20,696 bases of DNA. Source: a virus. Of this stretch, positions 1,916 through 13,694 are shown piece after piece. Within the stretch, counting starts at the first letter, position 1. Every line of letters begins with the position of its first letter. The translations under genes and the position numbers were made by a program. Where the stretch lies: UHGV virus genome UHGV-0115176. One strand, given 5' to 3'. A model generated the notes under the pieces. It was not told where the DNA came from. It saw nothing but the letters and a program-made list of their open reading frames with translations, and made no database searches.

Positions 1916-2353
1916 TTATTTCAGGCATTGCGTCCTGATGTATTCCTGCAGGTAGTTAACCTGCGCGGTTATCCTGTCGATTCCACTTCTGAGACGGTAA
2001 TAATTGAGTTCAGCATCTGCTGTAAGTCTTGGGCTTTCTCCATCGCCCATGCTGCTGGCTCCGGTCGTTGACTTTGCACAGGTGGCGGCGACTTGCAGGC
2101 GCTTACGACCAGCAGAAACATCAGCACGGAGACTTTCGATAGTCGCGTTAGCATCAGCAAGCTCCTTTGTGTATCTGGCGTCAAGTTCTGCTACATCACG
2201 TTGACGCTTCTGCATGTCAGCAATTGTGGATGCGGCCTTATCGCGCTGCTCTTTGTAGGCGATTGCGTTATCACGGTAATGATTAACAGCCCATGACAGG
2301 CAGACGATGATGCAGATAACCAGAGCGGAGATAATCGCGGTTACTCTGTTCAT
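1916..2353 (-). CDS. Rz: Rz-type i-spanin (inner-membrane spanin)
   Basis: N-terminal TM helix ([23 protein letters not shown]) then a charged, coiled-coil-like periplasmic domain; ATG at 2351-2353 overlaps the endolysin stop (ATGA). The ORF-track start at 2365 is a GTG; the ATG is preferred. Confidence 0.8.
1969..2154 (-). CDS. Rz1: Rz1-type o-spanin lipoprotein, embedded in the +1 frame of Rz
   Basis: ORF 1969..2184 contains [20 protein letters not shown] (signal peptide with lipobox LVVSAC) followed by a Pro-rich short mature region; fully nested in Rz, the classic Rz/Rz1 arrangement. Start chosen at the Met preceding the signal peptide. Confidence 0.75.
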
Positions 2354-2853
2354 TGCTGACCCCACAAACAGATTTCACGCTCAATCTCACGACGAGTCAT
2401 GAGACCTTTCCATTGCTTACCGCCAGCATATGTCCAGCGACGTAGCTGATCACATGCACCTTTGATATCACCCTGGTTGATTTTGCGAAGAAGCGTCGAT
2501 GTTCTGAAATTGCCTGCGCCCACGTTATAGACGAACGAATAAAGAGCGCCGCGCGTTGTTTCCGGTATATCGACTTTGATGTACGGGTTAATTTGTCTGG
2601 CGACAGTGGCAAGGTCTTTATTCAAGAGTGCTTTGCATTCTGCTTTGGTATACGTTTTACCGAGCATGATGTCTTTTCCTGTATGCCCGTGACATACAGT
2701 CCATACACCAACAATATCTTTGTATGGTATGTAGCTGACACCTTCCAGGCCATCGTTACCACTTGGTCCAGTGATTAACACAGATGCTATAGCAATAGCC
2801 CCGCCACTTATCGCCGCTATTACGCTATTTCGTAGTGCCGGTGACATTGCCAT
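2350..2853 (-). CDS. R: SAR endolysin (phage lysozyme, P21 R-like)
   Basis: 167 aa; N-terminal signal-arrest-release segment [17 protein letters not shown] followed by a T4-lysozyme-type catalytic region; as I recall it is almost identical to phage 21 endolysin R21. ATG start at 2851-2853. Confidence 0.9.
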
Positions 2854-3028
2854 TCAATCTGTCCTCGCGCTCTTTGCGCTTGTAGTACCAGTTGATGCCA
2901 AATGTGCCGACAGTACAAAGAATACCAATGATGACAGCCCAGTCATTCAGGGAGAGAATGCCACCCATCGCAGTCAGTCCTCCGAAGCTGTAACTGAACC
3001 ATTCTCTGATTTTGTCCATACGGTACAT
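2825..3028 (-). CDS. S: Class II holin (pinholin-like) with dual-start motif
   Basis: 67 aa with two predicted TM segments and a charged C-terminus; begins MYRMDKI (Met1 and Met4 separated by Arg), the holin/antiholin dual-start pattern; overlaps the endolysin start by 29 nt. Confidence 0.8.
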
Positions 3029-3430: not shown

Positions 3431-3478
3431 AAATAAAAAAAGCCACCGTTGCAACTTAAGAGTCACTAACGGCAGCTT
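3431..3478 (-). terminator. Candidate intrinsic terminator immediately 3' of HNH endonuclease gene 1
   Basis: Minus-strand RNA stem GCUGCCGUU / AACGGUGGC (9 bp including 2 G-U) with a 17-nt loop, followed by U7AUUU (plus-strand A-run 3431-3441). The long loop lowers confidence. Confidence 0.35.
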
Positions 3479-3484
3479 ACATCT

Positions 3485-3997
3485 TTAAACGGTATGATAT
3501 TTCATTCTGGCTGCCTCAAAAGCCGCAGCGGCAAGTTCGGCAGTGTCATGGTATCCAAGGTTAATACACTTTCCAGACGCATTAATTCTTGCTCTCCATT
3601 TCCCGTACTTAGCATCCCAAGACACGCCACGGTATCCAGATTTATTATTCTTCTGAATTTTCCTGTTTTGCATATTTTCGGAATGAGTGACAAGACGAAG
3701 ATTTGATATCCGGTTATCTGTTCTTACCCTGTTGATGTGATCAATAAAACCATCGGGCATGGTGCCATAAACAATCAACCATGCCAGTCTGTGAGCAGGG
3801 CATGCTTTACCATTAATCATAATCATTAAATACCCATCAGAATTTATTGATGAGCATTTCTTGAAAGCAAAACGAGAGTTCCATGTCAAAGTGGTCCTCT
3901 CTCTCCCCTGCCTCCATCTCCAGTGAAAGTCGCCTGATGATGGATTGTAATCAACAACAGAAAGCACCATTTCTGGCGTTAATTTTATTTCTTTCAT
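3485..3997 (-). CDS. HNH homing endonuclease with C-terminal AP2-type DNA-binding domain (copy 1)
   Basis: 170 aa; motif GFIDHINRVRTDNRISNLRLVTHSENMQN (HNH) then YRGVSWDAKYGKWRARI...GYHDTAELAAAAFEAA (AP2-like). ATG at 3995-3997 with AAGGT SD. Confidence 0.85.
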   Translation of the reverse strand: MKEIKLTPEMVLSVVDYNPSSGDFHWRWRQGRERTTLTWNSRFAFKKCSSINSDGYLMIMINGKACPAHRLAWLIVYGTMPDGFIDHINRVRTDNRISNLRLVTHSENMQNRKIQKNNKSGYRGVSWDAKYGKWRARINASGKCINLGYHDTAELAAAAFEAARMKYHTV

Positions 3998-4115
3998 CGC
4001 TTTACCTTAGGGATAGAGCCTGTTCGCGTAGATATGACAGCCAAGAGCGGAGCGATGTTTCCACCACCATATCTCAGGCCCATATCACTAAGACTCTTGT
4101 TTTGATTGCACGCGA

Positions 4116-4144
4116 ATGCAAAAAAGCCCACAGGAGGTGGGCTT
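4116..4144 (-). terminator. tR'-like intrinsic terminator downstream of Q
   Basis: Minus-strand RNA AAGCCCAC-CUCCU-GUGGGCUU (perfect 8-bp stem) followed by UUUUUUGC; about 50 nt after the Q stop codon (4192-4194). Confidence 0.6.
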
Positions 4145-4184
4145 GTGATGGTTGCTGAATGCAAAAGCAGCAGCATATGTGAAT

Positions 4185-4214
4185 ATTATGGCTAAATGGC
4201 TAATTGCATGTCAA
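4185..4214 (-). promoter_or_regulatory. Candidate late promoter pR' (-35 TTGACA, -10 CATAAT) overlapping the 3' end of Q
   Basis: Minus-strand TTGACA (plus 4209-4214), 18-nt spacer, CATAAT (plus 4185-4190) directly after the Q stop; the predicted start would give a short (~60 nt) terminated leader ending at the tR'-like hairpin, analogous to lambda 6S RNA. Confidence 0.4.
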
Positions 4215-4710
4215 GACTTTTAACAGCAACATGCTTAACTTTCTCAACACGTTTACGCATTTTGAAAGCATTTTGCATTGGTTGGTACAAAACAAATAAC
4301 GACGCTTTCAGGATGTCGTCAATTTCGTTTCTACAGGTTGCCATTGAAGGTTTTCTCCATCCCTCGCCACCACGTCCACACATCTTGCGTGGCTTTGCAG
4401 TCGCGTGATAGTAGGATGCAATTGCTCGCTTAGATGAACCATGAGCGTAGTAGCTGAGGAGGATGCCAAAGGCTTTCTTGTCAATGTACATGACGGAATC
4501 GACGACCTGAGAAATCAACATTCCATCATCATCATTACACATTGGCCTTGTCATAACTCTTCCCGGCTCTACGCTCTCCATGAACTTCGCTATTACGCTG
4601 CTCATGCGCTTTTCCAGACGACCTGAATAAACCCATGCGCCCCACAGTTCAAGCCAGCCATTCAGCCACTCATGCTGTTCTTTGGTGAGGTTTAGTTCTC
4701 TTATGCCCAC
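4192..4710 (-). CDS. Late-gene antiterminator Q (QuuD-type family)
   Basis: 172 aa; LELWGAW... and [14 protein letters not shown] motifs resemble Q-family antiterminators of E. coli prophages; sits between ninI and the lysis cassette. The start at 4708-4710 is GTG, overlapping the ninI stop. Confidence 0.75.
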
Positions 4711-7171: not shown

Positions 7172-7210
7172 CCCCCAAATAAAAAGGCCTGCGATTACCA
7201 GCAGGCCTTT
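7172..7210. terminator. Strong hairpin / candidate bidirectional intrinsic terminator overlapping the stop of HNH gene 2
   Basis: Perfect 10-bp inverted repeat AAAGGCCTGC (7183-7192) / GCAGGCCTTT (7201-7210) with an 8-nt loop; U-rich tracts follow on both strands (minus UUUUAUUUG; plus AUCUUUUUUU). Confidence 0.6.
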
Positions 7211-12948: not shown

Positions 12949-13623
12949 ATGAAAACAGTCCATGACATCCGGCGGTCTAACGCCAGAAAACTGAGAGATG
13001 GTGTTGGCGGGAATTCTTCCTTTGCCACCATGATTGATCGCGAGCCAACCCAGACCAGCAGGTTTATGGGAGATGGTGCTACTAAAAATATCGGTGACAG
13101 CATGGCACGGCACATCGAAAAATGTTTCGACCTGCCTGTCGGATGGCTTGATCAAGAACACCAGACAACAAACATCACAAAAAAACCTGATGTTTCAATT
13201 ACTAACAAACAAATAACGTTAGTCCCTGTCATATCATGGGTACAGGCCGGAGCATGGAAAGAAGTTGGCTATTCTGAGGTTGATTTGAGCACAGCAGAAA
13301 CTTATCCCTGCCCTGTACCCTGTGGCGAAATGACTTATATCTTGCGGGTGATTGGTGATTCAATGATTGATGAGTACCGCCCGGGAGACATGATTTTTGT
13401 AGATCCTGAAGTCCCTGCCTGCCACGGTGACGACGTTATTGCATTGATGCACGATACGGGCGAAACCACCTTTAAGCGGTTGATAGAAGATGGAACACAG
13501 CGTTACCTCAAAGCATTAAACCCAAACTGGCCTGAACCTTACATTAAGATCAACGGTAATTGCTCTATAATTGGTACAGTAATTTTCTCAGGAAAACCAA
13601 GAAGATACAAAATAAAGGCCTAA
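12949..13623 (+). CDS. CI-like prophage repressor (N-terminal HTH, C-terminal S24 LexA-type autopeptidase)
   Basis: 224 aa; HTH-like N-terminus (ARKLRDGVGGNSSFATMIDREPTQTSRFMGDGATKNIGDSMARHIEKCF); C-terminal S24 signature with Ser in VIGDSM and Lys in TTFKRL; divergent from cro. Confidence 0.85.
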   Translation: MKTVHDIRRSNARKLRDGVGGNSSFATMIDREPTQTSRFMGDGATKNIGDSMARHIEKCFDLPVGWLDQEHQTTNITKKPDVSITNKQITLVPVISWVQAGAWKEVGYSEVDLSTAETYPCPVPCGEMTYILRVIGDSMIDEYRPGDMIFVDPEVPACHGDDVIALMHDTGETTFKRLIEDGTQRYLKALNPNWPEPYIKINGNCSIIGTVIFSGKPRRYKIKA

Positions 13624-13661: not shown

Positions 13662-13694
13662 TTGACAATGTACCCTTGAGATACATAATGTATC
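13662..13694 (+). promoter_or_regulatory. pL-like promoter (TTGACA-N16-CATAAT) with overlapping operator dyads
   Basis: Consensus -35 TTGACA (13662-13667) and -10 CATAAT (13684-13689); dyad ATGTA (13668-13672) / TACAT (13682-13686) and perfect palindrome GATACATAATGTATC (13680-13694); the 23-mer 13666-13688 matches OR-a at 16 of 23 positions. Confidence 0.6.

Follow-up and report, generated by a model that had tools for sequence, protein, structure and literature searches.

The window, a 20,696-nucleotide stretch of viral DNA (UHGV virus genome UHGV-0115176), very probably carries, at the 3' end of its Q antiterminator gene, a Q21-family late-gene switch belonging to a lambdoid prophage; the family is that of phage 21. 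On the minus strand, a promoter (pR') that contains a Q-binding element (QBE) is followed by a pause element and an intrinsic terminator, here called t1; behind these lie an HNH endonuclease gene, a second terminator and the lysis genes. All of the defining features of a Q21-family cassette that can be looked for in sequence appear to be present, and Q-dependent read-through is expected by homology. The switch as such is no discovery, because its biology is textbook material and the same DNA is already in GenBank in phage HK629. The mechanism is known; what differs, and is modestly new, is the specificity of the QBE, the location of the promoter inside a longer Q gene, and a different first terminator that comes with an HNH gene and the ancestral terminator.

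The pR' promoter and the pause element

Across the end of Q, the minus strand reads AAAGTC-TTGACA-TGCAATTAGCCATTTAGC-CATAAT-ATTCACATATGCTGCTGC..., and the initial annotation had rightly recognized a TTGACA hexamer, an 18-nt spacer and a CATAAT hexamer (4214–4185) overlapping the Q stop codon. The stop, TAG, is found at 4194–4192, and the -10 hexamer begins two bases past it. Since the Q open reading frame (ORF; 4710..4192) ends at this codon, the -35 hexamer and most of the spacer fall within the last codons of Q. Together, the two hexamers match the consensus at 11 of 12 positions and form the top promoter-like site in the first 8 kb by consensus scan.

What raises this site above chance is its position, its register with the annotated elements of phage 21 and its conservation in diverged phages. 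The record of the complete phage 21 genome (OL657228) annotates a -35, an upstream and a downstream Q-binding repeat (QBEu and QBEd), a -10, a start site, a sigma-dependent pause element (SDPE; TAAGCTG) and a terminator, and all of these up to and including the SDPE align base for base with the window. The same promoter allele is labelled pR' in the records of phages Sf6 and HK75 and is adjoined by a Q21-family gene, which bears out the earlier placement of pR' in the end of Q. In phage 21 and in Hafnia phage yong1, Q stops 10 codons earlier, and the same promoter elements lie there in non-coding DNA. The spacing of the -35, the repeats, the -10 and the pause element is constant across alleles that are only 55–80% identical, and TTGAC[A/T] is found at the -35 of all family promoters examined except one. 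As far as sequence can tell, a sigma-70 promoter thus reads toward the late genes from the 3' end of Q, as is typical of the family.

The predicted start site lies 7 nt past the -10 in the context ATTCAC-A-TATGCT, compared with ATTCGC-A-TAAGCT in phage 21. Directly behind it, at +2..+7, the hexamer TATGCT takes the position of the phage 21 SDPE. The initial annotation had proposed a search for a Q-binding element and a -10-like pause signal; TATGCT and the two TTAGCC repeats described below are what that search identified. The hexamer 7 nt past the -10 reads T-A-x-x-x-T in 57 of 57 distinct family promoters (TAAGGT in 24, TAAGCT in 22, TATGCT in 6 and other variants in 5). Among 80 contigs with the Q allele of the window, the 7 nt before the hexamer vary (TAGAGGG, TAGAAGG, TAGCAGG and so on), while the hexamer itself is essentially fixed.

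The Q protein and its binding element

The Q ORF belongs to the Phage_antitermQ family (PF06530, E = 1e-25 by Pfam). Its only matches in the PDB are to Q of phage 21 (6jnx and 6p18, E = 3e-92) and not to lambda Q (4MO1); with only Q21-type chains matched, the cassette is not of the lambda type. Residues 1–94 are identical to those of crystallized Q21. From residue 95 on, in the part with the DNA-reading helix-turn-loop-helix, the protein is the Sf6/HK75 allele, divergent from Q21 but clearly homologous. The gene is accordingly a mosaic: its 5' 270 nt are 98–100% identical to phage 21, and near position 4440 the identity falls to 55–80%, the 3' third and the promoter being another allele. With the junction at this point, the part of Q that reads DNA was therefore inherited in one block with the site that it binds. 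The protein ends in a 10-residue C-terminal tail, the codons of which carry the -35 and the QBE.

Both repeats in the spacer are in register with the QBEu and QBEd of phage 21, and each contains the hexamer TTAGCC (Table 1). QBEd includes the Q stop codon, and its last base doubles as the first of the -10. Two C:G pairs, at -21 and -13, are functionally important (Shi et al., PMC6606751); in the window these positions correspond to C4199 in QBEu and C4191 in QBEd.

The specificity of this pairing was examined in a sample of 80 diverged family loci (L127–L206), whose Q proteins are 70–99% identical to that of the Hafnia phage and for which Q residues and promoter DNA were tabulated. Q proteins with H or Y at residue 95 and R at residue 128 are found with a QBEd of TGAGCA (24 distinct Q/promoter combinations), those with R at both residues with TGAGCC (14 combinations) and those with R at 95 and N at 128 with TTAGCC (19 combinations). 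There are no exceptions among the 57 distinct combinations. The C-terminus of Q and the QBE are less than 250 bp apart, and linkage alone could yield such a pattern, which is why all 162 alignment columns of 68 distinct Q proteins were tested for their partition with each QBE base separately. Base 2 of the subsite is perfectly partitioned only by residue 128 (R with G, N with T), and base 6 only by residue 95 (H or Y with A, R with C). Both residues contact bases in the cryo-EM structure (Shi et al., PMC6606751). The window, with R95, N128 and two copies of TTAGCC, follows the same rule, and since only residues 128 and 95 track bases 2 and 6, the repeats in the spacer are taken to be the binding site of the window Q. 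To judge from these alignments, the correspondence of residues 95 and 128 with bases 6 and 2 is a simple natural recognition rule with the three classes TGAGCA, TGAGCC and TTAGCC. It is a directly testable specificity rule on an antiterminator of solved structure, and it could yield orthogonal Q/promoter pairs.

Two leaders and two predicted terminators

The perfect 8-bp GC-rich hairpin with a U-tract that was initially reported is found at 4144–4120. The hairpin proper (4144–4124) has 8 perfect pairs, 5 G-C and 3 A-T, and the T run occupies 4125–4120, with two of its T within the stem. Its predicted fold has a free energy of -12.5 kcal/mol (z = -3.35), and 0 of 200 shuffles were as stable. 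The distance of about 50 nt given at first needs adjusting, as the hairpin starts 40 nt past the -10 and 34 nt past the predicted start. A leader RNA that begins at 4178 and is terminated here would be about 59–61 nt long. The hairpin is annotated as a rho-independent terminator in the HK629 record, and in two other loci (L006 and L021) no terminator besides t1 precedes the late region.

Hafnia phage yong1 and the diverged loci L133, L147 and L181 all keep the 7-bp stem AGCCCAC/GTGGGCT and the T run unchanged. The loops differ by lineage (CTCCT, TCCAT, CGTCGA and CTCTGA), and the linker is also variable. A stem that never changes beside a loop that is free to vary agrees with constraint on the t1 hairpin, to the extent that comparison can show it. 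When each is folded alone, the leaders of the lineages have a common fold: a hairpin at +4..+26, a variable linker, the t1 stem of 7–8 bp and a U run. Leader DNA from +1 to +25 is nearly invariant across lineages in the alignment. A count of consensus pairs gave only 74% pairing for t1, a value that was set aside as an alignment offset, each sequence folding correctly alone.

Most family leaders without t1 (among L127–L206) carry the motif G[C/G]TGCCGT..[GC]TG..CTTAAG directly past the pause element, from +8 to about +30. This motif is not simply the terminator stem, because it is present even where the terminator lies further downstream. A possible leader peptide was also considered. ORF60 (4176..3994, minus strand, 60 codons) begins at +3 of the late transcript and has an ATGA overlap with the HNH start at its end; as a coupled leader peptide it was rejected, being shortened to 8–34 codons in relatives and having no Pfam match.

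Directly past the -10, the sequence shared by the window and HK629 departs from that of Sf6, HK75 and phage 21. Behind the HNH gene, a copy of the phage 21 leader and its terminator tR' is found at 3479–3435, identical to the original over about 50 nt and with no promoter in front. Its hairpin (3478–3435) has the same fold as phage 21 tR', with -20.2 kcal/mol and z = -4.3. The order is thus pR', the leader TATGCT...t1, a 120-nt untranslated region (UTR), HNH, the leader TAAGCT...tR' of phage 21, and the lysis genes, with t1 and the 21-type tR' as the predicted intrinsic terminators between promoter and late genes, as is usual in the family. Since the phage 21 leader reappears past the HNH stop codon, the second terminator, which the initial annotation had ascribed to the HNH gene, is indeed present as a hairpin with a T run but is the ancestral phage 21 tR'. 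Conversely, the promoter-proximal hairpin, which had been called tR', is terminator-like as described, but by this comparison t1 is an alternative leader allele, co-inherited with HNH, and not the ancestral tR'.

The HNH-AP2 gene and its 5'UTR

An HNH gene does lie between the late-control unit and the lysis genes, as originally stated, in the form of an ORF at 3997..3485 with HNH_3 and AP2 domains. Its product is 99.4% identical to HNH of HK629. With a nuclease and a DNA-binding domain in a small stand-alone ORF, the gene is, by its domain content, of the free-standing homing-endonuclease type. Phages whose flanks are otherwise identical differ in whether they have it at this locus: the site is occupied in HK629 and 39 E. 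coli genomes and unoccupied in Sf6, HK75 and most of the contigs in the 80-locus sample with the same Q allele.

The 5'UTR of the gene is conserved and probably structured. In the predicted long hairpin, TCTTAGTGATA...GCCTG pairs with CAGGC...TATCCCTAAGG, which would place the 3' arm over the HNH ribosome-binding site; the hairpin may serve in translational control of the endonuclease. In diverged relatives, the leader is 75–81% and the UTR 69–86% conserved, compared with 57–60% in the coding DNA of HNH. In the UTR helices of the consensus fold, four pairs are kept through changes on both sides, and over the whole UTR structure 93.6% of cells are paired, against 29–45% with the partners slid. 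The UTR fold of the window alone is not significantly stable (z = -1.4).

A different HNH-AP2 gene, encoding a 169-residue protein with 40% identity, is found in another locus (L088, 1996–2506) about 200 nt past an intact Sf6-type pR' and a 21-type tR'. Because this gene differs, the gap between tR' and the lysis genes appears to have been colonized independently by more than one endonuclease gene.

Distribution of the t1 leader, UTR and HNH gene

Over the whole region, identity is 98.9% with phage HK629 and 99.9% with a prophage of E. coli VR50. A 25-mer from the t1 leader is found in 40 IMG/VR contigs, preceded in about 35 of them by the Sf6-type promoter and in 4 by a true 21-type promoter (TGAGCA repeats and AACACT). 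In nearly all 40, t1, a 170-residue HNH and the 21-type tR' occur at fixed offsets. Among 5,426 complete E. coli genomes, 39 have the full unit and 41 have the t1 leader, just one of the latter without an HNH gene. The 25-mer was not found in species-representative genomes, though it is present in those 41 complete E. coli genomes. A plain 21-type leader is found in 59 to 66 of the 80 loci with the same Q allele, most of them without HNH at the site.

The association extends to diverged loci. L133, L147, L181 and L192 have the t1 leader together with HNH proteins that are only 53–61% identical. The HNH clade, down to 53% protein identity, was found only with the t1 leader (52 loci in a pattern scan), and three further loci that the scan missed (L024, L029 and L045) also have HNH with the t1 leader. 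What lies past the HNH gene depends on the lineage. In the window it is the 21-type leader from its pause element onward, 6 nt past the HNH stop; in L181 it is another resident-type leader, starting at the HNH stop codon; in L133 and in L147/L192 there is only a hairpin.

Leaders with t1 and no HNH are also known. In L006, L021 and E. coli WCHEC115106, t1 runs straight into the 3' flank of the 21-type tR', and these forms are most simply explained as deletions between the similar terminator tails GTGGGCTTTTTT and GGTGGCTTTTTTT. They are rare (1 of 41 E. coli genomes with t1). The HNH-less Hafnia phage yong1 was considered as proof of an HNH-independent t1 allele and rejected as ambiguous, since it could be a deletion product: in L133, of the same lineage, HNH is present together with a second terminator, and the flank behind that terminator is exactly the one that yong1 has after t1. 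Two further forms are rearranged derivatives of the t1-HNH unit. In the PhiR12 phages (L004, phage PhiR12_1, 3490–4340), Q, pR', t1 and about the first 70 nt of HNH are followed by unrelated sequence, and in L011 t1 is cut in mid-stem (entry L011/L066).

This distribution indicates that the leader from +1 to t1, the UTR and the HNH gene are a co-inherited unit. In the family at large, promoter/QBE alleles and leader/terminator alleles have apparently been swapped freely, and only the pause element T-A-x-x-x-T is fixed. Such modular exchange fits a mechanism in which the Q-modified polymerase ignores whichever terminator follows.

Proposed operation of the switch

In the structures of the phage 21 system, two Q protomers on a direct repeat load onto the sigma-paused complex and form a nozzle on the RNA exit channel (Yin et al., 10.1101/651190; PMC6606751). 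By homology, the window would work in the same way. The strong sigma-70 promoter in the last codons of Q would be constitutively active, with polymerase starting at about 4178 and pausing early as sigma region 2 re-binds TATGCT at +2..+7. Without Q, polymerase would resume and terminate at t1, releasing an RNA of about 60 nt. Once Q has accumulated, two protomers would bind the two TTAGCC subsites and load onto the paused polymerase, where the nozzle on the RNA exit channel would block hairpin formation. Polymerase modified in this way should then pass t1, HNH and the displaced tR' (3478–3435) into holin, lysozyme, Rz and beyond.

The leader-UTR-HNH unit would sit between the promoter and the resident phage 21-type leader. 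Two terminators in series would give a tighter off state and confine HNH expression to the late phase. Control by Q would survive the presence of the unit, because it brings its own pause element and terminator.

Alternative readings

Several observations weigh against the switch as described. A promoter match of 11 out of 12 is not rare by chance and is weak evidence alone: there are two in the 20.7-kb window, and at least one occurs in 27.5% of 200 dinucleotide shuffles. The t1 leader is without the GCCGT..GTG..CTTAAG motif common to most other family leaders past the pause element, so that pausing and Q loading might differ in detail. Compensatory changes in the t1 stem were found in none of the lineages, as the stem never varies, and the pairing is thus supported by the invariant stem and free loop only. 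The HNH-less t1 forms (yong1, L006 and L021) are compatible with two histories, an ancestral state or a deletion between the two terminator tails. Finally, the association of Q with the QBE has three classes only and may reflect as few as two independent switches.

One rival view is that the hexamers resemble a promoter by accident, as part of the Q coding sequence, and have no promoter function. The frequency of such matches in shuffled windows would agree with it, as would the location of the -35 and spacer in coding sequence, but it is scarcely credible given that the same elements are non-coding in phage 21 and yong1, where Q ends 10 codons earlier, that their spacing is kept across alleles of 55–80% identity and that the repeats co-vary with the DNA-reading residues of Q. 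Another location for the promoter is implied by the HK629 record (JQ182735), which labels the hexamer TATCTA, at 4034–4029 of the window, as "putative late promoter pR'" and the upstream hairpin as a terminator; the hairpin at 4144–4124 would then merely end the Q message. This is very improbable, and the HK629 pR' was rejected. TATCTA has no -35 at a usable distance and was missed by the consensus scan, it lies inside a conserved hairpin of the UTR without Q-binding repeats or a pause element, and it is CGTCTA in L147, L181 and L192, with the key first two positions lost; 4214–4185, on the other hand, matches phage 21 in register and is the annotated pR' of Sf6 and HK75. The comparison therefore corrects a database annotation, in that pR' of HK629 is misplaced, and it also shows that the terminator adjacent to the promoter is not the ancestral one. 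It is also unlikely, if less so, that the roughly 60-nt leader RNA has a regulatory role of its own in lysogens, as a small RNA. The precedent is StxS, a constitutive pR' transcript ending at tR' that binds Hfq and regulates rpoS and stx1 (PMC7547250), and all four lineages have two predicted hairpins and a U tail, with a first 25 nt that is nearly invariant, more than the 6-nt pause element alone seems to need. However, the demands of pausing, backtracking and Q loading could suffice to keep +1..+25 conserved, and the linker, a possible location for a seed, is the most variable part. Nor was any Rfam family matched, the only hit being a chance one to P9 on the other strand, whose 18 bits fall below the gathering score of 43.

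A further reading concerns only the origin of the unit and is compatible with the Q21-type mechanism. The pause element, t1 leader, UTR and HNH gene could together be a mobile cassette whose endonuclease cuts the region of the start site and pause element in Q21-family late promoters. The cassette would have been copied in at about +1/+2, pushing the resident leader downstream, and its own pause element and terminator would be adaptive in that the late switch goes on functioning. This reading is put forward tentatively, with the balance of evidence somewhat against it. In its favour, the resident 21-type leader of the window follows 6 nt behind the HNH stop and begins exactly at its pause element, and that of L181 begins at the stop codon; the unit is found behind two promoter alleles and before different downstream backgrounds; the HNH clade occurs with no leader other than t1; conservation is higher in leader and UTR than in the HNH coding sequence; and HNH_3 and AP2 are homing-endonuclease domains. 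However, L133 and L147/L192 have no full resident leader past HNH, only a hairpin, and the Hafnia lineage reads equally well as an insertion of HNH with its own terminator just past a native t1. Other HNH-AP2 paralogs lie downstream of an intact 21-type tR' without t1, which makes the gap between pR' and the lysis genes a general landing zone. Ordinary mosaic recombination could produce the same distribution. It is more doubtful still to combine a homing cassette whose replacement pause element and terminator preserve antitermination with a 95/128 code that gives three possibly orthogonal Q/QBE pairs. Were it true, a selfish endonuclease gene would bring its own copy of the regulatory leader that it disrupts and so preserve the regulation of its host.

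Comparison with known systems

The closest studied relative of the Q21-family switch described here is that of phage 21 itself (OL657228; structures 6P18, 6P19, 6P1A and 6JNX), which has the same layout, with two 8-bp direct-repeat Q sites, a pause element at +2..+7 and a close intrinsic terminator. The subsites differ, being TTAGCC with R95/N128 in the window and TGAGCA with H95/R128 in phage 21, as do the -10 and the spacer (CATAAT and 18 nt, compared with AACACT and 17 nt). Because the window Q is 10 residues longer, its promoter lies inside the Q gene, unlike that of phage 21. The first terminator hairpin of the window begins at +35, whereas that of phage 21 begins at +3 and includes the pause element. 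Where the window has the HNH gene and second terminator, phage 21 has two tRNA genes; no tRNA genes like those of phage 21 and Sf6 were found in the window.

In Sf6 and HK75 (AF547987 and HM173637), Q, the -35, the QBE and the -10 are essentially identical to those of the window. They are followed by a phage 21-type leader, TAGAAGG-TAAGCTGCCG... and tR', with neither t1 nor HNH, and thus represent the unoccupied form of the site. HK629 and the prophages of E. coli VR50, E2348/69 and others share the whole arrangement at 98.9–99.9% identity, with essentially no difference.

The Q, pR', 6S RNA and tR' of lambda follow the same logic, with a constitutive promoter, a sigma-dependent pause, a QBE between the -35 and -10, a short leader RNA that ends at a terminator, and antitermination that is processive. 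The lambda leader is 194 nt long. Lambda Q belongs to an unrelated family, its sequence showing no obvious homology to Q21 and its structure resembling Q21 only in the helix-turn-helix, and the lambda late promoter has a -35-like element in its initial transcribed region, while other lambdoid late promoters, including pR' of phage 21, are described as being without one (Shi et al., PMC6606751). The StxS RNA of Shiga-toxin phages (PMC7547250) is likewise a short constitutive pR' RNA that ends at tR' in lysogens, as is predicted here, although no sequence relationship between it and the leader of the window was found.

Small intergenic HNH genes of polymorphic presence, with conserved flanks and a suggested hairpin at the ribosome-binding site, are also found as the free-standing HNH genes of T4-like phages (e.g., mobE, PMC2790892). 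The HNH gene of the window differs in lying inside a leader under antitermination control, bracketed by two leader-type terminators. This arrangement was not found described; literature searches covering HK629 as well as HNH genes within the late leaders of lambdoid phages returned nothing relevant and no paper discussing it.

Genomic setting

The coordinates of the features are given in Table 1. The minus strand carries the late genes as well as the early rightward operon. The first late genes to be reached after read-through are holin, lysozyme and Rz (1916..3028), and upstream of Q, on the same strand, are NinG and a NinI-like phosphatase. The rest of the window is that of a lambdoid prophage, with an integrase, an S24 repressor, a CII-like protein, Rha/Ash and replication genes.

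Table 1. Features of the late-control region and adjoining genes, in window coordinates
Feature	Position	Strand	Description
Q antiterminator gene	4192..4710	minus	GTG start, 172 aa, stop TAG 4194-4192; Pfam PF06530
Q residue 95 codon	about 4428-4426	minus	
Q residue 128 codon	about 4329-4327	minus	
pR' -35 hexamer	4214-4209	minus	TTGACA; consensus scan and alignment to annotated phage 21 -35
QBEu	4205-4198	minus	AATTAGCC; hexamer TTAGCC 4203-4198; in register with phage 21 QBEu ATTGAGCA
QBEd	4197-4190	minus	ATTTAGCC; hexamer TTAGCC 4195-4190; in register with phage 21 QBEd AATGAGCA
pR' -10 hexamer	4190-4185	minus	CATAAT; consensus scan; same position as phage 21 AACACT
Predicted transcription start	4178	minus	A, 7 nt past -10; from alignment with phage 21 start
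Predicted sigma-dependent pause element (-10-like)	4177-4172	minus	TATGCT, +2..+7; position of phage 21 SDPE TAAGCT(G)
Small 5' hairpin of leader RNA	4153..4175	minus	+4..+26; predicted in all four lineages folded
Terminator t1	4144-4120	minus	Stem AAGCCCAC/GTGGGCTT, loop CTCCT, run of 6 T
Conserved 5'UTR of HNH gene	4005..4093	minus	Probably structured; long predicted hairpin
HNH-AP2 endonuclease gene	3485..3997	minus	170 aa; HNH_3 4e-18, AP2 2e-8 (Pfam)
Promoterless phage 21 leader copy	3435..3479	minus	TAAGCT 3479-3474, tR' hairpin 3478-3440, T run 3441-3435
Holin	3028..2825	minus	Pfam PF16080
Lysozyme	2853..2350	minus	Pfam PF00959
Rz	2365..1916	minus	Pfam PF03245

The other 11/12 sigma-70 match in the window, TTGACA-16-CATAAT at 13662–13689 on the plus strand, lies 39 nt past an S24-peptidase repressor-like ORF (12949..13623) and reads toward the integrase end. 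Its location makes pL the probable identity. Between NinG and the primase-helicase gene, the nin region contains a G+C-rich hairpin of 10 bp (AAAGGCCTGC...GCAGGCCTTT; 7183–7210) that is flanked by T runs on either side and so resembles a terminator acting in both directions.

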